From: an uncultured delta proteobacterium
GTDB lineage: Bacteria > Desulfobacterota > Binatia > Binatales > Binataceae
DNA length: 64,000 nt
Direction: 5' to 3'
Assembly: GCA_963711565.1 (NCBI GenBank)
Contig: CAVQEQ010000004.1
Location: 1-64,000 of the forward strand
Part shown: piece after piece, positions 1 to 60,226 of the stretch
How positions within the stretch are numbered: position 1 is the stretch's first letter
How the letters are laid out: each line of letters starts with the position of its first letter
The notes under the pieces: model-generated
What the model was told of the DNA's origin: nothing
The model's database searches: none
Seen by the model: the letters and a program-made list of their open reading frames with translations, nothing else
Made by a program: the position numbers and the translations under genes

Positions 1-641
1 AACACGCGCGACTCATCTATACGCTCGACGACTATCTCGCCCACGGCATCATCGACGCCAACCAAGCCCAAGAGTTTCGAGGAGCGGTCGCCAGACGCGA
101 AAACATCGTGCTCGCCGGCGGAACCGGCTCCGGCAAGACGACGCTGGCAAACGCCCTGCTTCACGAGATGGTCCGGCTCGGAAATCCCACTGAGCGTTTC
201 ATCATCATCGAGGACACTCTCGAACTACATTGCGACGCGCCAAACGTGATGCAGCTTCATACGACGGTCGCAGCGGACCTCACCTTCCTTACACGCACAA
301 CAATGCGCGCGCGTCCCGACCGCATAATCATCGGTGAGGTTCGCGGCGGAGAAGCACTGGCGCTGCTCAAGGCCTGGAATACCGGCCACCCCGGCGGCGT
401 GACTACAGTGCACGCCAATAGCGCAGCAGCCGCGCTCACTCGACTGGGCAGTCTGGTTCAAGAGGCAGGAGTACCGCCCCAGCCGGATCTGATCTCACAG
501 ACCGTCAATGTTTTGGCTTTTATTACCCGCACGCCCAAGGGGCGGCGCGTGACCGAGATGGTTCGCGTTGAGGGCTACGATCCCGCATTCGGTTTCAAAA
601 TCAGTTCGATAGGAGGCCGTCATGAACTCGATCATCAGTAG
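1..641 (+). CDS. trbB: Conjugal transfer ATPase TrbB/VirB11 (5' end outside window)
   Basis: GGTGSGKTT Walker A, IEDTLEL, RPDRIIIGEVRGGEA, WNTGHPGG-TTVHA. Confidence 0.95.
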   Translation, partial: HARLIYTLDDYLAHGIIDANQAQEFRGAVARRENIVLAGGTGSGKTTLANALLHEMVRLGNPTERFIIIEDTLELHCDAPNVMQLHTTVAADLTFLTRTTMRARPDRIIIGEVRGGEALALLKAWNTGHPGGVTTVHANSAAAALTRLGSLVQEAGVPPQPDLISQTVNVLAFITRTPKGRRVTEMVRVEGYDPAFGFKISSIGGRHELDHQ

Positions 642-972
642 GATTCACTCGTGCACCGACCAGTGGTTCAGCAAACTGAGCTACGCGATCGCCGTGGTAG
701 CGATTCTGTGGCCTGCGCAAGCGCTGGCAACCACAGGAGTCGGTACTCTGCCGTGGGACGCGCCACTCGCGACGATTCAGGGAGACCTGCAGGGCACCGT
801 CGCCCATGCCGCGACAACAATAGCCGTGATCGGCTGCGGGCTTACCTGGACCTTCAGCGAGCATGGCACCGGCGCGCGGAAAATGTCCGCAGTTGCACTA
901 GGAGGAGCGGCGGCGCTCGGAGCAACTCAGTTGATGACGGCGTTGTTTCCATTCGCGCCGACGCTCTTCTAG
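622..972 (+). CDS. trbC: Pilin TrbC/VirB2
   Basis: Signal-like N-terminus, LPWDAPL motif, two hydrophobic helices, position after trbB. Confidence 0.85.
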   Translation: MNSIISRIHSCTDQWFSKLSYAIAVVAILWPAQALATTGVGTLPWDAPLATIQGDLQGTVAHAATTIAVIGCGLTWTFSEHGTGARKMSAVALGGAAALGATQLMTALFPFAPTLF

Positions 973-993
973 TCAGGCGGTCAGGATCGGGCG

Positions 994-1326
994 ATGGACA
1001 CCGAGGTTCAACGAACGCTGATCCATCAAGCGCTCACGCGGCCGGTCTTGCTTGGAGGCGCCGAACGGCGGCTCGCGATCCTGAACTGGCTGATAGTCGC
1101 AGCGCTGATTTTCGGCGTCGGCCTACATCTATACACGGTTGCGATCGCGACGATCCTGGGCACCGCTGGTCACTGGGCGCTTCGACAGGCAGCCAAGTTC
1201 GATGCGCAACTGAGCGAGGTTTACATCCGGCACTTGCATTACCAGCGGTACTATCCGCCGCGTGCCACGATCACTGCCCCACCAGCACCCGTTCATCCGG
1301 CAGTGCCGAGGCTTCGGAAGTACTAG
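994..1326 (+). CDS. trbD: TrbD/VirB3
   Basis: IHQALTRPVLLGGAER, TM pair, AKFDAQ..YIRHLHYQRYY. Confidence 0.9.
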   Translation: MDTEVQRTLIHQALTRPVLLGGAERRLAILNWLIVAALIFGVGLHLYTVAIATILGTAGHWALRQAAKFDAQLSEVYIRHLHYQRYYPPRATITAPPAPVHPAVPRLRKY

Positions 1327-1335
1327 GGGACAGAA

Positions 1336-3849
1336 GTGATGTTCAAAGAATTCAGAAACCTTCAGCGCAAATCAGATAGACTCGGAGGTTTTGCAGACCT
1401 CCTCAACTACGCGGCGCTCATCGACCCCGGCATAGCTCTATTGAAGGACGGCTCGCTCCTGGCCGGCTGGCGCTACGGCGGTCCCGACTTGAACTCCGCA
1501 AGTCCCGAGGAAATGACGGCTCTCGCTCATCAGGTAAATGCCGGGCTGGCCCGGTCGGGCGACGGCTGGATGATGAACGTCGATCTCATCCGCAAACCGA
1601 GCATCGGCTATCCGGAGGCCGGAGCTTTTCCGGACCCCATTACGGCGCTGATCGATCACGAGCGGCGCCTTCACTACACGGAGGAAGGCCAGCACTTCGA
1701 GAGTCGCTTCGCGCTGACTCTCACCTGGACGCCACCCACCGAGATGCAGTCGCGGGCCGCTGGCCTGTTCTTCCAAGGCCGCAGAGCAACCGATTGGGAG
1801 GAGACGCTCGATGTCTTCAGGCGCAGCCTCGCGGAGAATGAAGACGCCCTGAGCGCCAGACTCCTCATGCAACGTATGGACGACGTTGCGCTCCTGTCGC
1901 ACCTGAACTCCTGCATCGGCGCACGCCACGATCCGATCAGGCCGCCTGCCGAGGGTAACTTTCTCGACGTTCTGCTCGGCAATCACGAATTCCATGCGGG
2001 CTTCCAGCCCATGCTCGATGACCTTCACATTCGCGTGATTGGCTTAACTGGCCTTCCACTTCACTCCTGGCCCGAAGTCACCGCATTTCTGGATGAGCTT
2101 GCGATTGCGTACCGATGGTCAACACGCTTCATCTTCCTTGATCCGGCCGAGGCTGAACGGGCTCTTCGCATCCAGCGGCGCAACTGGTTCCAGAAGCGCC
2201 ATGGGCTGTCCGGCATGATCAAACAAGTGTTCAGCAACGGCGCGTCGCAGAGCTTTGAGAACAAAGATGCGCTGGCTATGGCTGAAGACGCGGACGACGC
2301 GCTTGCCGAGGCGAGCTCGAATCGGGTCCGCTTTGGTTACTACACGAGCAGCATCATCTTGATGGACGAGAATCGTTTGGCAGCCGAGTCCAACGCGAGA
2401 GAGATCGCAAAGCAACTGCAGCATCATGGCTTCCCCGCTGTCATCGAGCACGTCAACGCGAACGAGGCGTACGTTGGCTCGCTTCCAGGCCACGGGTATC
2501 GAAACGTCCGGCGACCGCTGATCCACACACGCAACCTAGCCGACCTCATGCCGACGACCAACGTGTGGCCAGGGGAGGAGATCAACCCCTGTCCGTTCTA
2601 TCCGGAAAACAGTCCGCCGTTATGCTACGCCGCGACGACCGGCGGAACGCCTTTTCGCCTCAACCTGCACGTGGGCGACGTCGGCCACAGCCTGATCTTC
2701 GGTCCGACTGGCTCCGGCAAATCCACGCTACTCGGCCTGTTAATCGCACAGTTCTTCCGGTATCCGAACGCCCAAGTTTTCTGCTTCGACAAGGGTCTGT
2801 CAGCATTCGTGCTCACCAGAGCCGCCGGCGGCGATCACTACGATCTCGGGGAAAGCGAAATCTCTTTCTGTCCCCTTGCGAAGGTAAACGACGATAACGA
2901 GCGGATGTGGGCGCAGGACTGGCTGGAAACTCTGCTCAACTTGCAGGGTGTGACCCTCCTTCCCCAACATCGGAAAGCGATCTGGCGTGCCCTCCAGCTA
3001 CTGGGCGACAGCGGATCTGACGCCCGAACCATCACGGACCTGGTTCGACTGCTTCAGGATCAGACGCTACGCGACGGCCTCGATTTCTATTCTCTTCACG
3101 GCCCGATGGGCCGTTTTCTGGACGCCGACAAGGATGCGCTGGGGAGCAGCCGATTCCAGACTTTCGAGATCGAAGCTCTGATGGCAATGGGTGAAAAGGT
3201 TTTGCTGCCGGTCCTGACGTATCTCTTTCACCGGATCGATCAGCGCTTGGACGGAAGACCGACGCTTATCGTGCTCGACGAAGCATGGGTGATGCTCGCG
3301 AACGGCGCGTTTGGTGCGAAGATCGAGGATTGGCTGCGAACGCTGCGCAAGAAGAACGCGGCCGTCGTGCTTTCCACCCAAAGTCTGGTTGAAGTCGCCA
3401 ATTCTCCGCAGCGCGACGTGATTCTCGAGTCGTGTCCGACGAAGATTCTGCTACCTAATCCCGAGGCGCAGAATCCCGTCACCGCCGATCTCTATCGCAA
3501 GTTCGGCCTGACCAGCCGACAGGTCGAGATGCTGTCGCTCGCGGTGCCTAAGCGCCAGTACTACTACCTTTCGTCTGCCGGGCGGCGGCTGTTCGATTTG
3601 GCGCTCGGAGAGGCCACTCTGGCTTTTATCGGTTCGGGGTCGAAGCCGGACATCCTCAAGGCCCGTCAGCTGATCACAAAACACGGTGATGGCTGGGCGA
3701 GCGAATGGCTTCGCATCCGAGGATTGGACGACTGGGCGGAATACTGGGAAAGCCGCGATACCAGGGCCTGCGCGCCATTCACCGAAATTCTCTCCGTCAA
3801 CGGAAATGGAAAGCTCCCCAAGGAGGAACTGCGATGGCACGACGCATAG
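1336..3849 (+). CDS. trbE: TrbE/VirB4 ATPase
   Basis: GDVGHSLIFGPTGSGKST, FDKG, LDEAW, LRKKNAAVVLSTQS; 837 aa. Confidence 0.97.
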   Translation: MMFKEFRNLQRKSDRLGGFADLLNYAALIDPGIALLKDGSLLAGWRYGGPDLNSASPEEMTALAHQVNAGLARSGDGWMMNVDLIRKPSIGYPEAGAFPDPITALIDHERRLHYTEEGQHFESRFALTLTWTPPTEMQSRAAGLFFQGRRATDWEETLDVFRRSLAENEDALSARLLMQRMDDVALLSHLNSCIGARHDPIRPPAEGNFLDVLLGNHEFHAGFQPMLDDLHIRVIGLTGLPLHSWPEVTAFLDELAIAYRWSTRFIFLDPAEAERALRIQRRNWFQKRHGLSGMIKQVFSNGASQSFENKDALAMAEDADDALAEASSNRVRFGYYTSSIILMDENRLAAESNAREIAKQLQHHGFPAVIEHVNANEAYVGSLPGHGYRNVRRPLIHTRNLADLMPTTNVWPGEEINPCPFYPENSPPLCYAATTGGTPFRLNLHVGDVGHSLIFGPTGSGKSTLLGLLIAQFFRYPNAQVFCFDKGLSAFVLTRAAGGDHYDLGESEISFCPLAKVNDDNERMWAQDWLETLLNLQGVTLLPQHRKAIWRALQLLGDSGSDARTITDLVRLLQDQTLRDGLDFYSLHGPMGRFLDADKDALGSSRFQTFEIEALMAMGEKVLLPVLTYLFHRIDQRLDGRPTLIVLDEAWVMLANGAFGAKIEDWLRTLRKKNAAVVLSTQSLVEVANSPQRDVILESCPTKILLPNPEAQNPVTADLYRKFGLTSRQVEMLSLAVPKRQYYYLSSAGRRLFDLALGEATLAFIGSGSKPDILKARQLITKHGDGWASEWLRIRGLDDWAEYWESRDTRACAPFTEILSVNGNGKLPKEELRWHDA

Positions 3850-4544
3850 CAACAATGGCGTTAATTGCTTTTCTTTTGGTGCCTCTATCGGCGCGAGCGC
3901 AGTTCGGTGGGGGAACACAGATCGTCTTTGACCCGAGTATGTTCGCTCGGCAACTGCAGCAGCTTCAGCAAGAAACTCAAACCGTTCTCACTGAGGCACA
4001 GCAACTCCAGTACATGATCAGGAACACCACCGGCGGATACGCCGGCGTATGGCAATCAAGTCAGTCTATGCTCGACGAACTGGGCGGGATCATTCAACAG
4101 CAGGGCGGTCTTTCCTATTCGCTCAGCAACCTGCAGTCGCAGTTCCAACAACAGTTTCCCGGCTACACCGTGCCATCCAATCCGGACCAACAGGAAGCCC
4201 AGAACATCGCCACCACGTTGAATACCCTCAACGGCACTCTGGCGGCAGCCCAATCGCAAGCGCAAAATTTTGCCAACGAGCAGGCGCAATTCGGCGAGCT
4301 CGAAGGTATGAACAAAACCGCTGCGGGAAATTTGCAGGCCGTCCAGGTCGGCAACGAAATCGCCTTGCAGCAGGCGCAGCAGATTCAGATGCTGAGGCAG
4401 TTGGTAGTCGCCATGATCAATGCGCAGAACGTCGTCGCCGCCAATGCAGTCAATCGCTCCGCGGCCGAAGACGCCAGCTCCCAACAGTGGCTTGGTGCCG
4501 GTCCGACCGTCCCATTTTCAGTGGCGCCGACAGCCGGTCAATAG
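3834..4544 (+). CDS. trbJ: TrbJ/VirB5-like
   Basis: Signal peptide (ARA|Q), IVFDP, Gln-rich, GNLQAVQVGNEIA..QIQMLRQL; start moved to ATG 3834 after GGAGG. Confidence 0.85.
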   Translation: MARRIATMALIAFLLVPLSARAQFGGGTQIVFDPSMFARQLQQLQQETQTVLTEAQQLQYMIRNTTGGYAGVWQSSQSMLDELGGIIQQQGGLSYSLSNLQSQFQQQFPGYTVPSNPDQQEAQNIATTLNTLNGTLAAAQSQAQNFANEQAQFGELEGMNKTAAGNLQAVQVGNEIALQQAQQIQMLRQLVVAMINAQNVVAANAVNRSAAEDASSQQWLGAGPTVPFSVAPTAGQ

Positions 4545-4561
4545 AGTCGACGGAGGCAGCC

Positions 4562-4903
4562 ATGAAACGTCTCGCGCTGTGCTTGTTGTTGGTCTCCATT
4601 TTCATTGTTACCGCTTGCCACAACAACAATGCTGACCAAACGCGCGACGCGCTTGCTTCCCTCCAGTCGAACGCTCCCAATCAGCAATATGGTCCCGCCT
4701 TCTGGAGCGGCGAGTATCAGCAGAAGACGGATCTATGGCAGCGCGCCTTCGATTTCTGTAGCCAACCCGAGCACCAGGATCATCCGAACTGTGCAGCAGT
4801 CCTGAGCCAAACGGAGACCCCCGGCGCGAAAAGCTGGTTGGGCGGAGGCACCAACGTTCCCTTCGGACTGCAGCCGCAACCAACTGGAAGCCCAAGTCAT
4901 TAG
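4562..4903 (+). CDS. Small lipoprotein, probable entry-exclusion TrbK-like protein
   Basis: GGAGG RBS, MKRLAL..VTAC lipobox, located between trbJ and trbL. Confidence 0.65.
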   Translation: MKRLALCLLLVSIFIVTACHNNNADQTRDALASLQSNAPNQQYGPAFWSGEYQQKTDLWQRAFDFCSQPEHQDHPNCAAVLSQTETPGAKSWLGGGTNVPFGLQPQPTGSPSH

Positions 4904-4914
4904 AGGCAGCGAAT

Positions 4915-5976
4915 ATGAACAACCTCGACAATATAGGCCAGACATTTCAATGGGCCGGTCAGCGATACATGGCGATCATGCAGCCTTTTGCGGAGAAGAT
5001 TTTTCTAGGTTTGGTACTCATCGAGATAATCATAACGTGTGTACACTTCCTCGCCGACCAAGATGAGCCCACCCGCCTTCTCGCCGAGTTAGTTAAAAAG
5101 TCACTCGCTCTAGGCTTTCTGTATGCGATGATCGTCAACGCGCCAATCTGGTTCAGCGCTATTGTCCAGGGCTTCCAACAGATAGGTGGACAAGCCGCAG
5201 GTATACCTGGGCTCAGCCCCAGCTCTGCTTTCAACAGCGGGCTCGCACTTTTCCAGATCATTTATCGTGGCTTCGGGAGTCTCGGTTGGTTTCACGTTAC
5301 GCTGGCAGCTCTGATCGCATTGATCGCCGGGTTGATCATGTTCTTGTCATTCGCCCTCATAGCCGGCCAAATGCTGCTGGCCCTTTGCGAGGCATACGTT
5401 GGCGCTGGAGGTGGTGTGCTTCTTCTGGGATTTAGCGGATCACGCTGGACGATTAAGTTTGCAGAAGGCTTCTTAGGTTGGATCGTGGGGGTGGGGATCA
5501 AGGTGTTTTTCTTATACTTGATGGTTGGGATAGGACTTACTATCACGGCGGGTTGGAACACCGCTCTGCTCGGTTGGACAACCGGCGACCCGTCCCTTCC
5601 CCTAACGATCGCAGGCGGCGCGCTGATTTTCGCGCTTCTCGCTTGGACCATTCCAAACACCGCCGCATCGATCGTCGGCGGCGCGGTCTCGCTCAATTTA
5701 AGCCACGCCTTTGAAACCGCGATGGCTGGTTACGGCTTAGGCCGAATTGCGACGAGCCAGAAAGCCGCAGCAGCTGAATCTGGCGTCCCAGCGCAAGCTG
5801 GCAATTCGCTCGGTGCAAGCCTTGAAGCCGGCGATAGAGCCGCCACCAACAGGGCTCGCACGCCCTCAACTCATCCGACGGTCCAGATGCCCTCAAGCCG
5901 GGCGTCCGCTTCGTCCAGTCCAGCAGGGAGCCAAACGACGGCGGTGGGCCGCAGTTCGGCCACTCAATTTAGCTAA
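4915..5976 (+). CDS. trbL: TrbL/VirB6
   Basis: Polytopic membrane protein, LLGFSGSRWT..AE, low-complexity Ala/Ser tail. Confidence 0.9.
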   Translation: MNNLDNIGQTFQWAGQRYMAIMQPFAEKIFLGLVLIEIIITCVHFLADQDEPTRLLAELVKKSLALGFLYAMIVNAPIWFSAIVQGFQQIGGQAAGIPGLSPSSAFNSGLALFQIIYRGFGSLGWFHVTLAALIALIAGLIMFLSFALIAGQMLLALCEAYVGAGGGVLLLGFSGSRWTIKFAEGFLGWIVGVGIKVFFLYLMVGIGLTITAGWNTALLGWTTGDPSLPLTIAGGALIFALLAWTIPNTAASIVGGAVSLNLSHAFETAMAGYGLGRIATSQKAAAAESGVPAQAGNSLGASLEAGDRAATNRARTPSTHPTVQMPSSRASASSSPAGSQTTAVGRSSATQFS

Positions 5977-43057: not shown

Positions 43058-44016
43058 TAGTCTCGAGCTTCTCCTCGGACGCCATTCTCAGGATCTGCGA
43101 ACGCCGCTGGTTCCTTGGAAGCGTCGTCGCTCACCCGACTGCGAAGAAGGATCCACTCCGCCGTGAGGCTCATGTATTGCGGCAATTGATGCACCCTCAG
43201 GCATGGGCGGGCAGGACGGTCCATACGATTATTGAACAACTGGTTCTTCCGGCAGTTCAAAAAGGGAAATTGCCTGAAACCTGCGAATTGATTGCTTACT
43301 CTCAGGACTTGTTGAAACGGCAAGCCGAATTTTCGAGGCAACGACTATACCGCACGGTTTCCAAGAGCCGCGCGGGCGACCAATTCTGCGCCCTTTTTCA
43401 GGATGAATACGGTCAGGGTCTCAGCCCAGCCGAACTGCAGGAAGTCGAAGAGCGCGTCCGAGTTTCGCTGGCGAATGTCGCGAAACTTGGAAGTCTTTGG
43501 TCTGAAGTACGAACTTCGCAACGTGTTTTGCCGGAGAACTCATTCCGGATCATTTTGGAGGGTGCGACACTCGAAGCCAAACCTGATTTAGTCTTTCTCT
43601 CTCAAGGCGGCACGACGATCGTTGATTGGAAATGCTGGGCATCGCTTACGGCGGATCCCTCGGAACAATTGCGATTCTACGCCTATCTCCTCGCGCGATA
43701 CTGGAACACCCGTAACTTGAAAGCGAAGGATTTTCGTCTACTGGCGGTCAACTTGTTGGCCGGTTCAACCACTCGCGTCGAGTGCTCCGACGACGATCTG
43801 GATCTGTCGGATGATCGAGTAACAGAATTTCTCGAGCGGGCGCGGAATATTATCGACGGACGCTCCTGGTCACAGATCGATCTCCGCGCCCTATACGGAC
43901 CTCGCAATCCCGAGACTTGCGAAAGGTGTAAATTCCGCGGTGTATGCCGCGACGCTCTGCCTGCATCAGATGCCGTTTCGGCACCTAAGGAGGGAACCCT
44001 ATGGCTGTTCTCTTGA
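43054..44016 (+). CDS. Cas4/AddB-like PD-(D/E)XK nuclease with 4-Cys Fe-S staple
   Basis: SFSS..CERR, GRTVH, PDL..IVDWK, QLRFYA, CERCKFRGVC. Confidence 0.88.
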   Translation: MIVSSFSSDAILRICERRWFLGSVVAHPTAKKDPLRREAHVLRQLMHPQAWAGRTVHTIIEQLVLPAVQKGKLPETCELIAYSQDLLKRQAEFSRQRLYRTVSKSRAGDQFCALFQDEYGQGLSPAELQEVEERVRVSLANVAKLGSLWSEVRTSQRVLPENSFRIILEGATLEAKPDLVFLSQGGTTIVDWKCWASLTADPSEQLRFYAYLLARYWNTRNLKAKDFRLLAVNLLAGSTTRVECSDDDLDLSDDRVTEFLERARNIIDGRSWSQIDLRALYGPRNPETCERCKFRGVCRDALPASDAVSAPKEGTLWLFS

Positions 44017-47797: not shown

Positions 47798-48170
47798 ACT
47801 CAAGAAATCCCACTTACGCCGACGGGTGAAGAGGCGCGCCAACTACGATCTTTTCGCGGCTATCCCGAGCCTCACAATTTCTTTTGAGCCGACTGACTTG
47901 TACCTACCGCCTTGAGCTGCGGATCGACGCCGAGATTTGAAATCCCCCATCCTGTTTCTGCAATAGAACCATTCTGCCCTCGGCTTATGGGCACGCGGCA
48001 CTTCGCTGTGAGCCGCCCCGCGAGCGCTCCGTAAACTCCGCGTCGCGGCTCCACACCACATCCCAACCCCGCCTGCGATCTCCGCTTCGCCGCCGCTCTC
48101 ATTGGTGGCGTTCTCTGCGCTAGCACGCCGCGCCAGCCCTTCGGGCCGCTTTCGCTCTGACACGTCCTGC

Positions 48171-48298
48171 CGCCCGCTCCGCTCGCGCATCTGGAATCTG
48201 CGCTGGGACCTCCAGTTCGGGTTGAGAGGTCCCCGCGAAAAATGTTGCGCGGGAATGAAAACACGAAGCACGCCCTGCCGCAGGAGCGGAAGCGGGCG
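48171..48298 (+). promoter_or_regulatory. Long-range inverted repeat, Frpo-like ssDNA promoter candidate
   Basis: CGCCCGCTCCGCTC (48171-84) pairs with GAGCGGAAGCGGGCG (48284-98), directly before the RBS of the leading-region genes. Confidence 0.5.
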
Positions 48299-48314
48299 AA
48301 AGGAGCAAACGACA

Positions 48315-48524
48315 ATGAGACGAAGGTTCAAATGCGATCCCAAGTGGATCACCGCCCGGTATCCGGCGAAATGCGCCGAGCCGAATTGCCAGACGGGAAT
48401 CAATTCCGGCGAGCGAGCGTTCTACTACCCCAGCGATAAGGCCCTTTACGGCACTCGTTGCGGTCACGGCGAAAAGGCCGAACGCGACTTTAACGCCCAC
48501 CGGATCGACGAAGACGGATTCTAA
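48315..48524 (+). CDS. Small Cys-containing leading-region protein
   Basis: AAGGAG RBS; ARY..C....C...I..GE..C. Confidence 0.65.
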   Translation: MRRRFKCDPKWITARYPAKCAEPNCQTGINSGERAFYYPSDKALYGTRCGHGEKAERDFNAHRIDEDGF

Positions 48525-48557
48525 ATCAAACAGCAAAAAGAATTGGAGGTAAGTGTC

Positions 48558-48941
48558 ATGTCTATCAACAAAGCAATCGTGGTCGGAAATCTGGGCCGTG
48601 ATCCCGAGGTTCGCGCACTGCCGTCAGGGCAGAACGTGGCGAATTTCTCGCTGGCGACGACCGAGCGTTTCACGGATCGGAGCGGTACCAAGCAGCAGCG
48701 TACCGAATGGCATCGCGTGGTCGCATTCGGACCGCTTGCGGATACGTGCCAACGGTTCTTGAGCAAAGGCCGTCAGGTTTATATCGAGGGTCGGCTCACT
48801 ACCCGCCAGTACGAAGCGAAGGACGGAAGCGGCACGCGCTATCGAACCGAAATCGTCGCCCTGCAAATGCGTTTGCTAGGGAATCGGAAGAACGGTAGCG
48901 CCGCGCCGAAAGCAGAGGCATCCGACGACATCCCGTTTTAG
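48558..48941 (+). CDS. ssb: Single-stranded DNA-binding protein
   Basis: INKAIVVGNLGRDPE, TEWHRV, KGRQVYIEG-L, DDIPF tail. Confidence 0.97.
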   Translation: MSINKAIVVGNLGRDPEVRALPSGQNVANFSLATTERFTDRSGTKQQRTEWHRVVAFGPLADTCQRFLSKGRQVYIEGRLTTRQYEAKDGSGTRYRTEIVALQMRLLGNRKNGSAAPKAEASDDIPF

Positions 48942-49016
48942 TTCCCACCACGCGACGGGAGAGCCGCGAAAGCGGTTCTCCCTCAATTATTCAAATCACA
49001 ATCGGAGACTACGGAA

Positions 49017-49889
49017 ATGGACATCTACGCAATCGTGACCGACAAGATAATCAATCTACTTGAACAAGGCGTCGTGCCGTGGCGCAGGCCGTGGACCTCA
49101 GCCGGACTGCCGCGCAATCTTGTGAGCAAGAAGCCATATAGAGGAATCAATCATTTTCTACTTTCCGTATCGAAGTATGTTTCACCGTTTTGGCTGACAA
49201 TGCGCCAGGCTAACGAACTTGGCGGACACATCCGCAAAGGCGAGGAAAGCACGGTTGTCGTGTTCTGGAAGGTTGACGATACGAAACAAAGCACCAGAGA
49301 CCTCGACACCGAGGAGACCGACGGGAAGGCGCGACGACGGTTCTTGCTCAGATATTATCGCGTGTTCAACCTCGAACAATGCGAGCTTCCGCAAGCGGTA
49401 CTCGACAAGCTGCCGAAGATCGAGACGCACGAGCACGATCCGATCGAAGCGGCCGAACGGATCATCGCCGTAATGCCCAACCCGCCGGAGGTTCAGCACG
49501 CAGGATCAAAAGCGTTCTACAGCCCGATCACAGATCGAATCACTCTGCCGCCGCGCGAACTTTTCGCGAGCGCTGAAGAATATTACGCCACAGCGCTGCA
49601 CGAGACCGTCCACAGCACCGGCCATCAGAAGCGCCTTGCGCGAGAAGGGATTTGCGAAGTCGCTCCGTTCGGTTCCGCCGTCTACTCAAAAGAAGAATTG
49701 TGCGCGGAAATGGGAGCCGCCTATCTTTGCGCGGAAGTCGGCATTACAGCTGCAGTCATCGATAATCAGGCCGCGTACGTGGCCGGCTGGCTAAAGAAAC
49801 TCCGCGACGATCGCAAGCTCCTGATACACGCCGCCGCGCAAGCGCAGCACGCCGCGGATTATATCCTCCGGGCCCCGCATGCAGTCTGA
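49017..49889 (+). CDS. ardC: ArdC antirestriction protein (ssDNA-binding + zincin)
   Basis: GVVPWRRPW, YRGIN, W-T-RQA..GG-IRKGE, ALHETVH-TGH, YS-EEL-AE. Confidence 0.93.
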   Translation: MDIYAIVTDKIINLLEQGVVPWRRPWTSAGLPRNLVSKKPYRGINHFLLSVSKYVSPFWLTMRQANELGGHIRKGEESTVVVFWKVDDTKQSTRDLDTEETDGKARRRFLLRYYRVFNLEQCELPQAVLDKLPKIETHEHDPIEAAERIIAVMPNPPEVQHAGSKAFYSPITDRITLPPRELFASAEEYYATALHETVHSTGHQKRLAREGICEVAPFGSAVYSKEELCAEMGAAYLCAEVGITAAVIDNQAAYVAGWLKKLRDDRKLLIHAAAQAQHAADYILRAPHAV

Positions 49890-51288: not shown

Positions 51289-51712
51289 TCCCTACTTCCC
51301 AGACCCAGGCGATGATAGCAGGAACCCCCGCGGACCGGTCATTCGAATCAACGAGCTTCCGTCGTGCCGGTGCTTCGTGCGTGGATTTCCTCGTCGGCCG
51401 CGCCATTACGCCGATCGTGCCCGCGTAAGTTTCGTTTATGAGTACAAAGGCGCAGCGTTCCAAGCTGGAAGAACTGGGCTACACCGACGATCAAATCGCC
51501 AAGCCCGCAGAAGCGCACGGCATCTTGAAGATCGGAACTAAGGCTTCAGCTTGAGCCCATTGCGCATGTGGATTTTTGTTCACAGACGGTTTAAGAATAT
51601 CGCCGATGGATTCCTCTACAACGAGGAGTGCATTCTGTACAGGATCGGCGCGCTTACCGCCTCTCCTTGCTCGGGTAGGTATACACTTTAATTGTGCACA
51701 GGGGAAAATGAA

Positions 51713-52720
51713 ATGCCACTAACTCCGATCTTTTATGTACCAATATTGAAAACCAAAGCGGGAGAGAAATGGGCTCTTTCTCATTTGGAATTCCCCGCCA
51801 AAGCGAGACTGCGACCTCTCATGGAACTCCACGGAAACAACGACAAATCGCTTACCGAACATCTCGACAGTTTGTGCGATGATCTAGCATCAGATTGGGG
51901 AACCGGGCGCTGGCTTTATTTGGACGGCATTTGGCTACATGGTGAGCACGGCTCTGCGGCTACTCTATCCGCGATCTTTGCAACTGCAGCGGAAAAAAGT
52001 CTAAAGGCGCTTCCGGTCGTGCGGACTACGTTCGGCGATCTCGCACTAGAAACTGTTCAAGACATTGTTACTGAAAATGACAACAATGGGTACCTGCTTC
52101 GCATAACGCCCGGCGATTTAGATCATACTGCGGCGATCAATGCGACGGTCGCGGCGATTGGCGTTCCACGAGATCGTATAGACCTATTGCTCGACTATCG
52201 CCATCATCCGATGAATCTAGTAACTGATGTCCCGAGAGTTCCCCATCTTAGCGATTGGCGCAGGTTTATAGCTGCTTCCGGCGTGTTTCCTAGGACCCAA
52301 ACCGGACTTCCGATCAATGTATGGACCCCTGTTCCTCGAATCGATTGGACATCCTGGCTATCACAGCGAAGTAGTCTCACGCGGAAGCCTATTTTCTCTG
52401 ATTATACGACGCGTTCGCCGGGAGCACCGGCGGAATTTGGAGTTCCTCGCGTCAACATCCGATACGCGACAAACGACACGTGGTCCTTCCACCAAGCGGG
52501 CAGATTTGCGGACGGCGCAGCACCGGAGATGCACGGCCTCTGCAATCAATTGGTGGTACGTCCGGAGTTTCGAGGAGCAACCTTCAGCGCAGGAGATGAA
52601 GCGTATGATCGGGTGCAAGACCCGACTGAAGGACCGGGCGGACCGACTCAGTGGGTTCAGTGGGCGGTGAGTCATCATATCGAATTTGCAGTTGAGCAGG
52701 CTGTTGCTGTCGGGCCTTAA
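51713..52720 (+). CDS. Beta-family (T4 beta/sce7725-like) protein
   Basis: YVPILKTKAGE..AL, LLLD, FSDY, NIRY, FSAGD, W..HHI. Confidence 0.85.
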   Translation: MPLTPIFYVPILKTKAGEKWALSHLEFPAKARLRPLMELHGNNDKSLTEHLDSLCDDLASDWGTGRWLYLDGIWLHGEHGSAATLSAIFATAAEKSLKALPVVRTTFGDLALETVQDIVTENDNNGYLLRITPGDLDHTAAINATVAAIGVPRDRIDLLLDYRHHPMNLVTDVPRVPHLSDWRRFIAASGVFPRTQTGLPINVWTPVPRIDWTSWLSQRSSLTRKPIFSDYTTRSPGAPAEFGVPRVNIRYATNDTWSFHQAGRFADGAAPEMHGLCNQLVVRPEFRGATFSAGDEAYDRVQDPTEGPGGPTQWVQWAVSHHIEFAVEQAVAVGP

Positions 52721-53309
52721 GCGCGAGGCGCACCTCATTGCACAGCATCTTGAGAGGCAAGGTCTCGATTTGTTGCCATAGCTCGATCACGGGTGCTTGT
52801 TGAGGAACGTGAATGCCCGCCCGTGCCAGAACTCTACGGCATTCCTGCTTCCAAAGAACCCGAACAAGGACTTTAGGATCTGGCTGGCAATTTTTTCGCG
52901 GGGCTCGCTTCGAGGACAGCCGGACAGTCCCATTGTCGGCTCTTTCAGCAAGCATGATTCCCCAGCTTTTCGGAATTCGTTTCCTAGCTGGATTCAGATG
53001 CTTGCGAGTCACAACGAGCGTAATGAATTCAAAGAGGCTTTGATATTGATCAGTTTGCGTGCCAAGCCTGACTAGCGAATCATGCTCGCTCTTAATTTCG
53101 TATCCGCAGAGCTCGCCATTAATGTACGCAATATCGGCGCGCCCGCGCCCTCTTAATAGGGGCAACTCTTCCACGATAGCCGCCGTTGGGTCTTGCTCCT
53201 GCAAAAAGCGAATCAAGGCGGCGCGAATGTCTCCGTCGAACAATCCCACCGTGGAAGAATCTAGCCGCTGGCATGGTGCCGGTTCAAGCGATACAAAACA
53301 GGGTTTCAT
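52584..53309 (-). CDS. sce7726-family protein (PD-(D/E)XK-like)
   Basis: EEL..RADIA.ING..GYEIKSE-DSL-RL..Q..Y, WGI; true start probably ~53260. Confidence 0.85.
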   Translation of the reverse strand: MKPCFVSLEPAPCQRLDSSTVGLFDGDIRAALIRFLQEQDPTAAIVEELPLLRGRGRADIAYINGELCGYEIKSEHDSLVRLGTQTDQYQSLFEFITLVVTRKHLNPARKRIPKSWGIMLAERADNGTVRLSSKRAPRKNCQPDPKVLVRVLWKQECRRVLARAGIHVPQQAPVIELWQQIETLPLKMLCNEVRLALKARQQQPAQLQIRYDDSPPTEPTESVRPVLQSGLAPDHTLHLLR

Positions 53310-55550: not shown

Positions 55551-55763
55551 TCAAGATTTCTGAAAGAAATCCGCGACCTGCACATCGAGAGCTCGGGCGA
55601 GTTTCACGATTGTGGTCAGCGAGGGGCTACGTTTACCGCGCAGAATCTGCGACAAGTGCCCCTTGGAGAAATCTGTTTCAAGATAGAAGCGGTCGAGCGA
55701 GCCGTACTTCTGGATGACGATCTCGCGCAGCCTTCGGCGGAATAGAGCCTCCTCGTTTGCCAC
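55551..55763 (-). CDS. XRE-family HTH regulator
   Basis: FSKGHLSQILRGKRSPSLTTIVKLARALDV. Confidence 0.85.
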   Translation of the reverse strand: MANEEALFRRRLREIVIQKYGSLDRFYLETDFSKGHLSQILRGKRSPSLTTIVKLARALDVQVADFFQKS

Positions 55764-55791
55764 ACCGCGCGTGTAGCAAAAGAGGACTGGC

Positions 55792-55817
55792 CCAGCGTTT
55801 GCAATTGCAAACGCTGG
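55792..55817. promoter_or_regulatory. Perfect 26-bp palindrome upstream of the XRE gene
   Basis: CCAGCGTTTGCAATTGCAAACGCTGG. Confidence 0.65.
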
Positions 55818-55877: not shown

Positions 55878-56858
55878 TCACGAGCTACCGTTGCGGCCGT
55901 TACGATAAGGGTGTCCGTTGAGATGTCCATTCGTTTCGTGCACTTCGTAGCGTTGAAGCCGATTGTAGAGGTTCCGTCGGCTCATTCCGAGAAGACTGGA
56001 CGCGCGAGCCTTATTTCCTCCGGCGAAGGCCAAGGTCCGGAAAATCAACTCGCGTTCGACCTCGCACATAGCCGAGCCAACGCGGACCATGAAGTGCGCT
56101 TCTGCGCCGTGAGAAGGAACGGACTCCATCGGCAGATCTCCAGCCGAAAGCATTGGAGAGGGGCACCTTATCACCGCGCGTTGGACGACATTGCGCAACT
56201 CTCGAACGTTTCCCGGCCACACGTGAGCTCGGAGGGCATCCAGGCAGTCTTGGCTCATACCTTGAATTTTCTTGTTGTGTTCCCGGTTGAATTCCTGGAT
56301 GAAGTGCTCGACGAGCAAAGGCAAATCCTCAAGACGGTCTCGCAGCGGAGGCAGCTCGACGGTGTAAACGTTGAGACGGTAGTAGAGGTCCTCGCGCAAT
56401 CGCCCCTCGCGGATCGCTTGACGAAGCGAACGATTGGATGCGGCGAAGACGCGCACGTCGATCGGCAGCTCTTTGCTTGCGCCGAGGCGGAGAACTCTCT
56501 TCTCTTCGAGAACACGAAGCAGTTTGGCCTGCATCTCCGGCCGCATCTCGGTGATCTCGTCGAGCAGAAGGCTGCCGCCGTTCGCCCGCTCGAAGCATCC
56601 CTCGCGGCGGCGATCCGCTCCCGTAAAGGCCCCGCGTTCGTGGCCGAACAGTTCGCTTTCGATCAGGCTTTCAGGGATCGCCGCGCAATTGATTGCCACG
56701 TACGGTCGGTTTTGGCGCTGCGACTTGTCATGGATCGCTCGTGCGGCCCGCTCTTTTCCCGTACCGCTCTCGCCAGTAATGATCACCGGCGCGCTCGTAA
56801 GAGCGGCTTCTTCAATCAGGCGTATGGCCCGGCGTATCGCTAGCGACTGACCAACCAA
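55878..56858 (-). CDS. Sigma54-dependent activator (AAA+ and Fis HTH) lacking an N-terminal sensor domain
   Basis: GESGTGKE, ESELFGHERGAFTGA, LDEI, DLYYRL, WPGNVREL, GNKARASSLLG. Confidence 0.93.
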   Translation of the reverse strand: MVGQSLAIRRAIRLIEEAALTSAPVIITGESGTGKERAARAIHDKSQRQNRPYVAINCAAIPESLIESELFGHERGAFTGADRRREGCFERANGGSLLLDEITEMRPEMQAKLLRVLEEKRVLRLGASKELPIDVRVFAASNRSLRQAIREGRLREDLYYRLNVYTVELPPLRDRLEDLPLLVEHFIQEFNREHNKKIQGMSQDCLDALRAHVWPGNVRELRNVVQRAVIRCPSPMLSAGDLPMESVPSHGAEAHFMVRVGSAMCEVERELIFRTLAFAGGNKARASSLLGMSRRNLYNRLQRYEVHETNGHLNGHPYRNGRNGSS

Positions 56859-57143
56859 TTTTCGCTCGCGAGATCAAAATCACAACCCCACCCCCGCCGG
56901 CACGTTCGCAGAAAGTAATCAGGCTGTGGATAACTTGTCAACAGGTTAATTTTGGTTACATTCTGCTGTTAACAGAACGTTAATGGTAACCTTACCTACT
57001 CTTGGCGACGGCTTCCTTTCCCGCCCTAACTCGGACATCAGGGACCGATATCGTAAAAGCATTATGTTTCCTTTTGATCGCTCAACCTCTCGACCCCTGC
57101 CACTGGCGAGCAATCTAGACTAGCTCCGCAAACGATGGCTCTC

Positions 57144-57230
57144 TGTGCAAAGTTTGCACATTGAAGGGCGAGCAAGACGAATTCCGAAATCGCCACGGAC
57201 ACTTACGATTGTGTGTGCAAAGATTGCACA
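57144..57230. promoter_or_regulatory. Two 17-bp palindromes (candidate upstream activator sites)
   Basis: TGTGCAAAGTTTGCACA (57144-60) and TGTGCAAAGATTGCACA (57214-30). Confidence 0.7.
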
Positions 57231-57333
57231 TGCACACTTTCTCTTCCGCCGAATGATCGCCAAATCCCTCTGTGGTCGGCGTGTCCACAACCGGATCGCG
57301 CCTTGTCGGTCGGCGTTCACGTGAACAGAGGAA

Positions 57334-57349
57334 CGGCACCGCCGTTGCT
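57334..57349 (+). promoter_or_regulatory. Sigma54 -24/-12 promoter upstream of the excisionase
   Basis: CGGCACCGCCGTTGCT: GG-N10-GC matching YGGCAC-N5-TTGCW. Confidence 0.7.
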
Positions 57350-57407
57350 CAATGAGTCTTCGGATGAGTGTGGGGTTGCGGGGATCTTTCGCTGCCGGGG
57401 GTCTTCT

Positions 57408-57812
57408 ATGTCGTACCAACCGCCGCACCAAATCACTTCGCGGGCAACATTGTCGTCCGCGACTATCGAGGAACTCCTCACAGATCCATCGCGTACAAGA
57501 GGGTTGGTCCTCGAATCGGTGCCCGAACTTCTAACGCAAGTTGCGTCGCGTGTAGCGTCGCTGAAAACTCTCGAGGGCGCGCTGCTCGCCCTGATGCTAA
57601 GTCAGCGGGTCGCGAACGGCGGCGCCAGGAACGTCGGCAGTGCGCTTCTGGGTGCGGCGGAACTCGCGAAACTTCTGGGCGTTCCAGAATCGTGGGTCAG
57701 AGAACAGGCGCGCCTCGGCAACCTGCCGTCCTTCAAACTCGGGCACTACGTTCGCTTCAGAGTCGAAGAAGTCGAGCGCTTTCTCGCCCAACGCGCCAGC
57801 CAAGCCGCTTGA
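57408..57812 (+). CDS. Excisionase-like HTH protein
   Basis: LLGAAELAKLLGVPESWV..G.LPSFKLG.YVRF..EVERFL. Confidence 0.8.
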   Translation: MSYQPPHQITSRATLSSATIEELLTDPSRTRGLVLESVPELLTQVASRVASLKTLEGALLALMLSQRVANGGARNVGSALLGAAELAKLLGVPESWVREQARLGNLPSFKLGHYVRFRVEEVERFLAQRASQAA

Positions 57813-57847
57813 CTTTCTAGATCATCGACTATACGATACGTATAGTC
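57809..57847 (+). promoter_or_regulatory. Sigma70 promoter with overlapping operator for xre-int
   Basis: TTGACT-N17-TACGAT; inverted repeat GACTATACG-ata-CGTATAGTC ends at the ATG. Confidence 0.65.
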
Positions 57848-58039
57848 ATGACTGGGCGAGAACTCCATTCCATCAGACAGAAGTTGGCGCTTACGCAAGC
57901 TGCACTTGCGGAAGCAGTCGGTGTAACTTCGAATACCGTGGCGCGCTGGGAGCGCGGCGAGATGGCAATCTCCGAGCCGGCCGCTAGACTGTTGGAGAAG
58001 CTCGCCGAGGAACGTAAAATCGCTAGGCGAGGGAATTAA
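57848..58039 (+). CDS. Small XRE-family HTH protein
   Basis: LTQAALAEAVGVTSNTVARWERGE. Confidence 0.88.
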   Translation: MTGRELHSIRQKLALTQAALAEAVGVTSNTVARWERGEMAISEPAARLLEKLAEERKIARRGN

Positions 58040-58040
58040 G

Positions 58041-59282
58041 ATGGGCGGGAATATTCAAAAGACGGGTGGACGTTGGCGAATCGACTATCGTGACGGCCAG
58101 GGCAGACGGCATCGCGCGACCTTCGACACGAAGAAGGAAGCCGACACCGCGCTGACGGACATCAAATCGCGAATCGGGAAGGGCGAGTATGTGGCTTCGA
58201 AGCTTCTGCCACATTTTCGCGAACTCGGGGAAGACTGGTTCCGATCGAAGGGCGATCGTCGGCCAGGAACGGTCGGCAACTGGCGCGCTCAGATCGATCT
58301 GCACCTGAATCCCAAATTGGGAGATCTTCGCCTCGATCGGATCAACGTCGCGCTGATCGAAAAGCTGCGCGACGAGCTCCGCGCAAAATTGAGCGCCAAA
58401 AGCGTGAACGCCGTGTTGACCACGGCTGCGGCAATCTTCAAGCTGGCGGTTCGGCGTAAACTTGCAACTGGAAACCCCGCCGCGGACGCCGAGCGTGCCT
58501 TCATGGGCGCAACTGAACTCAAGGATGAGGCGACGAAGGAGCAGCGGGGAGACGGCGTTCAGCCGCTCAGACCAGAGGAAGTTTTGGATCCCAACGAGAT
58601 CCGCAAGGTGCTGGAAAAAGCTGAGCCCGGATATTACCGGACGCTTTTCCTGACCGCGTATTTGACGGGCATGAGAAGCGGCGAACTGTTTGCGCTGCGA
58701 TGGTCGGACATCGAGCTTAAAGGAATCGATGCGGAGACCGGCAAGGAATCCTCACGCGGACGAATTTTGGTTCGCCGCTCGCTCTCGTGGGCTCGCGTGA
58801 AGAAGGATGACGGTCCGGTCCGTCCTCGCTTTTTTCCGCCCAAAACGAAGGCGGGCGTTCGCACGTTGCCGATTCCGATGGAACTCGCAGGAGCGCTCCG
58901 GCGCTGGAAGCTCAAATGTCCGCAGAGCGCGCACGACATGGTCTTCCCGATGCCAGACGGACAGCCGATGCATCGCAGCACGGCGCTGCGTTACGGCTTG
59001 TGGCCGGCGCTCAGCCGCGCCGGATTGCGGAGGGTCAACATGCACTCGCTCCGCCACTCGTTTGCGTCGGCGCTGATCATGGCGGGAGCACCCGTGACCG
59101 AGGTTCAGAGCCTGCTTGGACACTCCAGTCCGGCAGTCACGCTGAAGGTCTATTCGCATTGGTTCAAGAACGTCGAGACCGATTCGGTGGACAGGCTGGC
59201 GAAGAGTCTGACGACAGGCTCCAAAAATCTTGGACACTTTTTGGACACTTTGGAGGTTGCCCCGAAGGCAGATAGCGCATAA
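58041..59282 (+). CDS. int: Tyrosine integrase
   Basis: Arm-binding N-terminus, TGMRSGEL..LRWSDI, PKT, HSLRHSFAS, LGHS..TLKVY. Confidence 0.96.
   Translation: MGGNIQKTGGRWRIDYRDGQGRRHRATFDTKKEADTALTDIKSRIGKGEYVASKLLPHFRELGEDWFRSKGDRRPGTVGNWRAQIDLHLNPKLGDLRLDRINVALIEKLRDELRAKLSAKSVNAVLTTAAAIFKLAVRRKLATGNPAADAERAFMGATELKDEATKEQRGDGVQPLRPEEVLDPNEIRKVLEKAEPGYYRTLFLTAYLTGMRSGELFALRWSDIELKGIDAETGKESSRGRILVRRSLSWARVKKDDGPVRPRFFPPKTKAGVRTLPIPMELAGALRRWKLKCPQSAHDMVFPMPDGQPMHRSTALRYGLWPALSRAGLRRVNMHSLRHSFASALIMAGAPVTEVQSLLGHSSPAVTLKVYSHWFKNVETDSVDRLAKSLTTGSKNLGHFLDTLEVAPKADSA
59230..59251 (+). repeat. 11-bp tandem direct repeat (arm-type site candidate)
   Basis: TTGGACACTTT x2 inside the integrase 3' end. 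Confidence 0.7.
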
Positions 59283-59301
59283 GTACTTGATTTCATTGAG
59301 C

Positions 59302-59393
<92 letters not shown>

Positions 59394-59428: not shown

Positions 59429-60226
59429 TTACGAGCCCGCTTGAGTGCCGTTTTCGGGTCGGGTGGGCATAGGGTGGGCATGATTTGAGGTCAACGGCGT
59501 CGCTGCGGTCTCCAGCGAAGACATTTCTTCTGCAGAAAGATCGTCCGTCGGTATCCAGCGCCAGTAATGTTTCGACAACATTTGCAGCGTGCGATGATCC
59601 ATCTGCCGCTGAATCCAGTTGAGCGGCTTGTGCTGCTTCAGCGCTAGGGCCGCGAAGCTATGAGGGCACTGCCCGATTGGTCTGTGCGGAACTTCAGCTC
59701 GGGTGGGGATCCGGCGCCACACCACGTCGGTCGCCCAACGCACATTGGGCGCAGCGCCGCTCTCATTGGGGAAGACGTACTTGCTGCGTAGCTGAACTCT
59801 TTCCCGTTGCTTTGACAGCTCAGCGCGAACCCTTGGACCGTACTGGATCATGCGCCGGCTGCTCTTCGTCTTCGGCGTCGTGATGCCATATCGGACGCTG
59901 AGGCTGCGGTTGATCAGTGCCCGGTCACGATCGAGGTAGACCCTGTCCCAGGTCAGAGCGAGCGCTTCGCCGCGTCGAATCCCGGTAAAGAAATAGAGAG
60001 TGACAAGAGCGCGTTCCCAGCCCTCGGCCGCCGCGATGATCGCTTCTATCTGATCCGCGTTATACGGCATCACTTCGGCATCTTCCGGCTCGTCCGAGGG
60101 TTCGGAATCGTCGTCGTTCGCCTGGCCGGAATCCTTGAATGGCTTCATCCCGAGCAGGAGGTCTTCGTTGAGAAGCTTCCGAACGCGAGCGAACTCCAGG
60201 ATTTGATTCAGGACATCCCATGCCAT
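59429..60226 (-). pseudogene. Truncated, degenerate tyrosine integrase of a second element
   Basis: TGIRRGEALAL-WD, PKT, GQCPH in place of the usual xxxRH, KHY; N-terminal domains missing. Confidence 0.8.
59461..59482 (-). repeat. Tandem direct repeat (arm-type site candidate of the second element)
   Basis: GGGTGGGCATA GGGTGGGCATG. Confidence 0.6.

Follow-up and report, generated by a model that had tools for sequence, protein, structure and literature searches.

An element-encoded, sensor-less sigma-54 activator as the probable switch for excision and transfer of a Binataceae conjugative element

The 64,000-nucleotide stretch analysed here (positions 1 to 64,000 of contig CAVQEQ010000004.1, assembly GCA_963711565.1; hereafter the window) comes from an uncultured member of the Binataceae and carries part of a trb-type integrative and conjugative element (ICE) located at the end of a tRNA-Ser gene. 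The element spans contig C1 of the host genome (G000), an assembly break, and contig C4, to which the window belongs. It encodes an activator of sigma-54-dependent transcription that lacks a sensor domain, and conserved -24/-12 sites precede both its excisionase gene (xis) and its transfer operon, which makes the activator the likely on-switch of the element. We consider it probable that this protein governs both excision and transfer as a level-controlled master activator, and it is predicted to be active once synthesised. All functions discussed below are deduced from sequence. The control module comprises the following features, in window coordinates:

55878..56858, minus strand: sensor-less sigma-54 enhancer-binding protein (AAA+, lid and Fis-type helix-turn-helix (HTH) domains by Pfam), TTG start, 326 amino acids (aa)
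56925..56933, minus strand: DnaA-type 9-mer between the -35 and -10 elements of the activator's predicted sigma-70 promoter
56936..56941, minus strand: consensus -35 hexamer of the activator's predicted promoter
57144..57160, no strand: candidate upstream activator sequence 1, a 17-bp palindrome with 6-bp arms and a 5-bp spacer; a conserved block in an 18-locus alignment
57214..57230, no strand: candidate upstream activator sequence 2, a 17-bp palindrome whose spacing is kept across loci
57334..57349, plus strand: -24/-12 (sigma-54-type, GG-N10-GC) promoter site of xis, predicted +1 at about 57360
57408..57812, plus strand: excisionase-type protein with a long N-terminal helix and a MerR-like winged HTH (HTH_17; TIGR01764 over cut-off), ATG at 57408
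57809..57845, plus strand: predicted sigma-70-type promoter of hth-int; it begins within the stop codon of xis, and a 17-bp palindromic operator (57829-57845) covers its -10 element
57848..58039, plus strand: small XRE-type HTH protein (HTH_3), likely autoregulator of int; follows xis in most loci
58041..59282, plus strand: tyrosine integrase (Phage_integrase, Phage_int_M)

An intact activator that begins at its AAA+ domain

By its sequence, the activator is a member of the bacterial enhancer-binding protein (bEBP) family, featuring a Sigma54_activat AAA+ domain with Walker A, Walker B and GAFTGA motifs and a C-terminal Fis-type HTH. Pfam places Sigma54_activat at residues 1-167 (profile positions 1-167 of 168), the AAA lid at 173-248 and the Fis-type HTH_8 at 266-304, and yielded no match to REC, GAF or PAS domains anywhere in the protein. 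The original prediction, made from the letters of the window alone, had described a GAFTGA-containing activator that starts almost at its AAA+ domain and lacks these sensor domains, and the domain annotation bears this out.

The short N-terminus does not appear to be an artefact of annotation or decay. An in-frame stop lies five codons upstream of the TTG start, and in 26 sensor-less loci (among 30 fetched) the gene starts at the same position or at most three codons away (TTG in 15, ATG in 10, GTG in one), with unconserved frames upstream of the start. Many activator copies with open frames of about 330-360 aa were found in the 165 genomes of the order that were searched, and their alignment retains Walker A, GAFTGA, Walker B and the arginine-finger region. 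The ratio of nonsynonymous to synonymous substitution rates (dN/dS) relative to the window copy was 0.12-0.23 in 19 of 21 computable pairs; the gene is under purifying selection. The in-frame stop, the shared start, the unconserved upstream frames and the dN/dS values together rule out a frameshifted gene with a formerly longer N-terminus, and likewise the truncated pseudogene that the original prediction had considered.

The protein is not an orthologue of PspF, since it scores 265 bits on the corresponding model (TIGR02974), below the cut-off of 443.55. Its closest named relative (66%) is encoded in a Candidatus Binataceae genome, and a quick tree, which does not settle whether the ICE activators have a single origin, groups them with receiver-bearing activators of Binataceae (Shimodaira-Hasegawa (SH) support 92). 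This placement suggests that the ICE activators arose by loss of a receiver domain, a change that leaves some sigma-54 activators constitutive. Two further paralogues of the activator family in the host genome (G000:C4:628385 and 676465) have short upstream frames and form their own clade, and one carries a DnaA-type 9-mer about 315 nt upstream.

Paired palindromes and a -24/-12 site precede xis

The activator gene is divergent from xis, and the intervening region contains two near-identical 17-bp palindromes, 70 bp apart and with one difference in 18 nt, followed by a GG-N10-GC promoter site that starts 103 nt past the second palindrome; the original prediction had located each of these parts correctly. 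The palindrome pattern matches twice in the window against 0.16 expected, and none of 100 shuffles reached two matches, an enrichment test that is partly circular because the pattern was derived from the sites themselves. In the 4.84-Mb genome, these two are the only perfect copies. The xis site is the only exact match to the GG-N10-GC consensus in the window and one of 26 genome-wide, and it owes its weight to its positional conservation. The host encodes rpoN.

The layout was examined from both of its sides. Among 20 activator-centred regions of 20 kb, 18 contain one or two palindromes and then a -24/-12 site, and across these regions the module adjoins different integrases and six tRNA targets (Arg, Leu, Glu, SeC, Lys and Ser). 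In an alignment of 18 loci, which were picked for carrying the motif, the -24 and -12 boxes are invariant in 18/18 while spacer and flanks diverge (mean column identity 46%). A survey anchored on xis, which avoids selecting on the activator and covers the best 30 loci including the window, found the promoter in 26/30 (60-78 nt upstream of xis), a palindrome at the expected distance in 24/30 and a divergent activator within 1.5 kb in 24/30. The four loci without the promoter site have truncated or diverged xis matches, and in one further locus the activator lies 4.4 kb away. Spacing is held within 3-4 bp: where both palindromes are present (21 of 30 loci), these are 70-73 bp apart, with 121-125 bp to the promoter. 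The motifs are thus conserved in homologous loci, contrary to an outcome that the original prediction had regarded as fatal to it, and its central proposal, that the element gates Xis expression through host sigma-54, gains support from the conserved motifs, the intact activator and the host rpoN gene.

Judging from translations, the same promoter precedes at least three unrelated Xis-like HTH types, which points to a promoter tied to the excisionase function and not to one gene. The xis-promoter layout recurs, at the level of sequence, across genera, integrases and tRNA targets. Relatives of xis occur in 45 of the 165 genomes and 14 of 30 genera, and none was found outside the family in the 401 genomes of the phylum that were sampled. 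The best plasmid matches share less than 60% identity, and a search of representative sequences returned mostly generic activators.

Sensor-less activators with enhancers 100-150 bp upstream of a -24/-12 promoter represent a textbook arrangement, according to passages of PMC7057263. In the mechanism that we favour, the activator would, with high probability, bind both palindromes, assemble there and open the host sigma-54 polymerase at the xis promoter. A weak hint at the start site comes from RNA contigs of relatives (about 92% alike) in three studies (four soil metatranscriptomes), which over xis start at 57375, 57380 and 57396, that is, 15-36 nt past the predicted +1 at 57360. The hint is weak because strand and true ends cannot be read from such contigs, and in two runs there is partial coverage upstream of the predicted start; the contigs also carry no information on expression level and may include DNA.

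Xis as the probable gated component

The structure model of Xis (predicted local distance difference test score 79.7) features a helix at residues 27-70. A fold search returned no match at E up to 0.001, with weak matches to RdfS and BldC at E above 0.001. The integrase gene lies behind its own sigma-70-type promoter, kept in 16/17 loci, and sigma-54 therefore likely gates Xis only. In passages of PMC5812530, Int of ICEBs1 and ICESt alone integrates the element, and Int together with Xis excises it. For the Binataceae element we infer a low, self-regulated supply of Int for integration, with Xis as the gated part: Int would probably be made independently at a low, autoregulated level, so that the supply of Xis decides excision.

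A second -24/-12 site precedes the transfer operon

The proximal transfer operon (trbF, trbG, trbI, traF, traD and the start of the relaxase gene) lies on G000:C1 together with a second -24/-12 site. Of 33 loci, 24 have this GG-N10-GC site 65-70 nt upstream of trbF, the first gene of the operon, and the two copies inspected in the present genome are among them; the background is 30/6640 bands. When 17 backbone genes were scanned, a sharp intergenic upstream -24/-12 band appeared only for xis (14/15) and trbF (11/23), and weaker bands before int (8/16) and traF (3/7) fall inside the preceding coding sequence. No conserved sigma-54 site was found before ssb-ardC. Among elements assembled on single contigs, five have both the activator and the trbF site, three have neither, one has the activator only and none the site only. 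Sequence conservation ends directly upstream of the trbF -24 box. This conserved site suggests that transfer, and not excision alone, is likely under the control of the switch.

The palindromes do not recur at this second site. The original prediction had proposed a search for the same activator-binding sequence ahead of the trb operon, where we found a conserved -24/-12 site instead: within 200 bp upstream of the trbF site no palindrome is conserved in 23 of 24 loci, the exception (L159) being rearranged, and none lies ahead of trb in the ICE part of the window (up to two mismatches) or in C1:1-7203 (up to one mismatch), weak palindromes elsewhere in relatives not having been scanned with a weight matrix. 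A short conserved word about 50 nt upstream of the trbF -24 box is present in six loci that share one promoter variant (L144, L135, L154, L163, L172 and L178), and it may be a half-site or the binding site of another factor.

In the integrated state, palindromes and trbF are 18-79 kb apart in five relatives, and in the predicted circle the palindromes would lie 2.4-4.2 kb upstream. According to passages of PMC7408454, NtrC enhancers act over 1 kb or more, and weakly up to 6 kb. It is rather likely that the trbF promoter, too, is activated by this protein, acting either in solution or, with equal likelihood, from the palindromes after the circle has formed and brought them to a distance of 2.4-4.2 kb. 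A stricter version, in which excision wires the enhancer to the mating genes and the trbF promoter, with no enhancer of its own, stays silent until the attachment (att) sites are joined, is rather doubtful.

The activator's own promoter as the likeliest point of control

A -35-like pentamer lies 73-98 nt upstream of the activator in 25 of 29 loci. The DnaA-type 9-mer is present in 21 of 29 upstream regions, where chance would yield 0.0016 per 130 nt; one locus has it in inverted orientation, and a further subfamily carries it in the -10 region instead. Two copies of this 9-mer also stand directly ahead of the host dnaA gene, and in the scan of backbone genes it was found at 18 of 28 activator starts versus 0-1 for other genes. 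From its sequence, the activator promoter is probably repressed by DnaA. LexA-type control found no counterpart in a crude test, in which no dyad common to the lexA and recA upstream regions recurred at the activator, xis or int promoters.

The known sensor-less activators work differently, and this provides the first alternative: the activator could always be made and be held off in trans by the N-terminal helix of Xis, the accessory XRE protein or a host protein, with the signal acting on the inhibitor. PspF and HrpRS are controlled in trans (passages of PMC7057263 and PMC4145663), and the N-terminus of Xis is predicted to form one long helix that is also fused to a different HTH in tRNA-Glu-type elements; however, no gene neighbouring the activator is common to all elements, the XRE gene being present in a minority and the Xis extension missing in other subfamilies, so that an inhibitor of the PspA or HrpV type is not evident, and the conserved signal sits at the activator's own promoter. 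We regard inhibition in trans as unlikely. Of the original prediction's comparison with PspF, the sensor-less architecture stands, whereas the partner gene expected of an activator inhibited in trans was not found in conserved form.

The lack of a shared partner gene, together with the conserved 9-mer at the activator promoter, makes the amount of activator the likeliest point of control. In the level-controlled switch proposed here, output could possibly be set mainly by this amount, through the weak start codon and a promoter likely repressed by DnaA, a step that we put forward tentatively, as a nearly balanced judgement. In a second subfamily (L113:11730-12359; L267-L279), a gene divergent from the activator may be an alternative input. 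Its product (about 209 aa) has a zinc-finger-like motif at the C-terminus and no NCBIfam match, and we take it to be ABATE/CGNR-like.

Contrary observations and remaining alternatives

A number of observations weigh against the proposed switch. Within the window, GG-N10-GC with one mismatch gave 3 matches against 4.98 expected, which is not beyond chance taken alone, and the host genome contains 16 other activator-family matches that could act in the activator's place. Around xis, L120 has an altered -12 box, L129 has kept the activator and lost both the palindromes and the promoter, and in G131 and G154 the xis promoter is retained while the flanking sequence retrieved contains no activator gene. 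Some activator copies are broken, several by stops, and that of L087 is also among the broken ones. An integration host factor (IHF) site between enhancer and sigma-54 promoter is common, not obligatory, and an IHF-like site was present in 1 of 25 loci. As to trbF, 18 of the 33 loci are at least 91% identical to that of the window and only 6 of the 15 more distant ones have the site, only 2 of 11 further loci have it, with one ambiguous, and G105 has the activator and the xis promoter and no trbF site. The locus counts are not independent, because the loci are kin. Of 16 further activator starts, only 4 carry the DnaA-type 9-mer, and most members of the ABATE-linked subfamily lack it.

Some of these points would also fit a second alternative, according to which the sigma-54 promoters are real and are fired by a host activator of the receiver type upon a host signal, the element's own activator being accessory or a competitor for the palindromes. 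The closest relatives of the ICE activators are indeed host receiver-bearing proteins (quick tree, SH 92), two of them encoded in this genome, and the two loci that keep the promoter without an adjacent activator, as well as the trbF promoter without a local palindrome, would be accounted for. Yet the only perfect palindromes of the genome lie beside the element's activator, which is under purifying selection with its GAFTGA intact, and three elements without this activator are also without the trbF site; we consider a host activator quite unlikely. A third alternative would make the motifs relics of descent and would have xis and trb served by other promoters or by transcripts that read through att, in the manner of Tn916, whose transfer genes are known to depend on read-through (PMC11658703). 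In its favour, the -24/-12 consensus taken by itself does not exceed chance expectation in the window, and circularisation would leave every gene from xis across att as far as trbL in the same orientation. We hold it to be very improbable, since the boxes are invariant while spacer and flanks diverge, the spacings are held and the layout persists where xis, integrase and target tRNA have been replaced.

The element, its ends and its cargo

Gene names were assigned from Pfam families. The remaining features of the element in the window are:

108..5976, plus strand: distal transfer operon (trbB, trbC, trbD, trbE, trbJ, trbL; Pfam)
48543..49889, plus strand: ssb and ardC, conserved element backbone (Pfam)
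55551..55816, minus strand: accessory XRE gene (55551-55763) with a 24-bp palindrome upstream (55793-55816), only in some elements
59232..59251, plus strand: short direct repeats, likely integrase arm sites by inferred function, also present inside the other end on C1
59300..59341, plus strand: att core of 42 bp, identical to G000:C1:7162-7203; 5' half of tRNA-Ser(GCT)
59302..59393, plus strand: tRNA-Ser(GCT), the integration target

The 42-bp repeat at G000:C1:7162-7203 indicates that the ICE runs from C1 across the assembly break into the window. As att duplicates the 5' half of tRNA-Ser(GCT), the intact tRNA gene lies downstream of the element DNA; most relatives, unlike the window element, duplicate tRNA 3' ends. 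One DNA run (X4) has a loose end at 59300 with a resemblance to the C1 flank, which is what an empty site would produce; no attP junction was found among the joints and loose ends listed. The resulting order is att, cargo, trbF-G-I, traF, traD, relaxase, the gap, trbB-C-D-E-J-L, defence cargo, ssb-ardC, activator, xis, hth, int and att. The trb genes and the start of the relaxase gene are present, and the place of the coupling protein falls in the gap between C1 and C4. Relatives assembled on single contigs show the same gene order, with relaxase and coupling protein where the window genome has the gap.

Several side observations concern the rest of the element and its surroundings. A GC-rich, strongly conserved non-coding block lies upstream of ssb (window 47990-48330; most of 13 aligned loci), and by analogy it could be a single-strand promoter or a leading-region origin. 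Defence-type cargo is dense at 6123-47797 and 51692-53309, and is also found at L112:5356-6264 (Pfam). It includes AbiEi/AbiEii, AIPR, an SMC-like protein with a phosphoesterase, an OmpA/EH-signature/SNF2 cluster, DUF499/methylase/helicase, JAB-ThiF, a PD-(D/E)XK nuclease beside a PIWI-domain protein (44001-46304), a Beta protein and a TIR protein. A third GG-N10-GC site, at 55788-55816, is oriented so as to read antisense into the activator gene from its 3' end. It overlaps the 24-bp palindrome upstream of the accessory XRE gene and is kept in 8/8 loci with that gene (L083-L090, L120), with a variable spacer. Half of it lies inside the palindrome and it may therefore be incidental; alternatively, it could make an antisense feedback RNA. 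Just past the tRNA gene, a second, N-terminally short integrase fragment (59429-60226, minus strand) is likely a remnant of another element.

The same genome contains a second ICE at the side of a tRNA-Thr gene (G000:C3:1568621-1574768 and G000:C2:1-45000; L187, L113). Its transfer genes are about 96% identical to those of the window element, a similarity that is the likely cause of the assembly break. This second element encodes a sensor-less activator of its own and a convergent integrase, and it carries one palindrome, a DnaA-type 9-mer, a trbF site and, ahead of an unrelated Xis, a -24/-12 site. Cross-activation between the two ICEs of this genome is plausible.

Comparison with known regulatory systems

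The activator resembles PspF of E. coli and HrpR/HrpS of Pseudomonas syringae in combining AAA+ and HTH domains without a cis-regulatory domain, in its GAFTGA motif and in an enhancer about 100-150 bp upstream of a -24/-12 promoter (passages of PMC7057263). It differs from them in grouping with Binataceae receiver-type activators, in having no PspA- or HrpV-like partner gene that we could find, and in its targets, which are mobility genes.

Among ICE regulators, SetCD of SXT/R391 and FseA of ICEMlSymR7A are likewise element-encoded activators that turn on an excisionase, and SetCD also acts on tra genes (passages of PMC5812530). They are FlhCD-like or made by frameshifting and respond to SOS or quorum control, whereas the activator described here is, from its sequence, a sigma-54 enhancer protein driven by ATP. 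In its backbone, with trb, traG, traF and an RlxS-like relaxase domain, the element resembles the ICEMlSym type (passages of PMC8627217). However, ICEMlSymR7A has the order trbBCDEJLFGI, an rdfS-traF-rlxS cluster and fseA, while here trbFGI comes first and xis lies beside int, and the relaxase scores 194.9 versus 850 bits on the RlxS model; gene order and relaxase score thus place the element outside the ICEMlSymR7A family. No FseA-type domain was found in the element by a search whose control detected 0/14.

The nearest precedent, by analogy, is RteB of the Bacteroides element CTnDOT. RteB is NtrC-like. It is an ICE-encoded activator atop an excision cascade (passages of PMC3809561), and the domains given for the related CTn214 include Response_reg, Sigma54_activat and HTH_8 (passages of PMC10865816). 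Unlike the activator described here, RteB is a kinase-paired response regulator and acts through RteC, not directly on xis (passages of PMC3809561, PMC10865816 and PMC1976400), and the passages of the CTnDOT-related papers contain no text showing a sigma-54 promoter for RteB. The Binataceae system is not of the RteA/RteB type, as the activator has no receiver and no kinase family was detected among the flanking open reading frames scanned. ICEclc also uses a host alternative sigma factor, its activation being RpoS-dependent (passages of PMC5812530), but RpoS needs no enhancer protein. Tn916 also couples transfer-gene expression to circularisation (PMC11658703), but relies for this on read-through of transcripts and on antitermination; the trbF gene of the Binataceae element is instead preceded by a -24/-12 site of its own.

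To our knowledge, known ICE master regulators work via sigma-70-family polymerase, repressor cleavage or quorum sensing. The original prediction had called sigma-54 gating unusual for ICEs; in agreement, we found no ICE with a sigma-54-driven xis or trb promoter in the open-access literature, and the passages of one ICE review mention RpoN only in a reference title (PMC5812530). What is new here is the trbF -24/-12 site, the separate integrase promoter and the DnaA-type 9-mer at the activator promoter, in an ICE control system built from known parts.

Implications

Sigma-54 promoters are silent without an activator, which can act from a distance, and placing a step that is expensive for the host under sigma-54 control would keep it off without leakage. 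The module is compact and widespread in an abundant, uncultured soil lineage, and a constitutive activator with its own palindrome would serve as an orthogonal expression part. If the recombination-gated reading of the trbF promoter is true, a single DnaA-sensing, sensor-less activator would order the life cycle of the element, first excision and then pilus building, and the element would be a natural bacterial case of enhancer delivery gated by recombination. If the link to DnaA is true, transfer of these ICEs would be tied to the replication state of the host and not to SOS.

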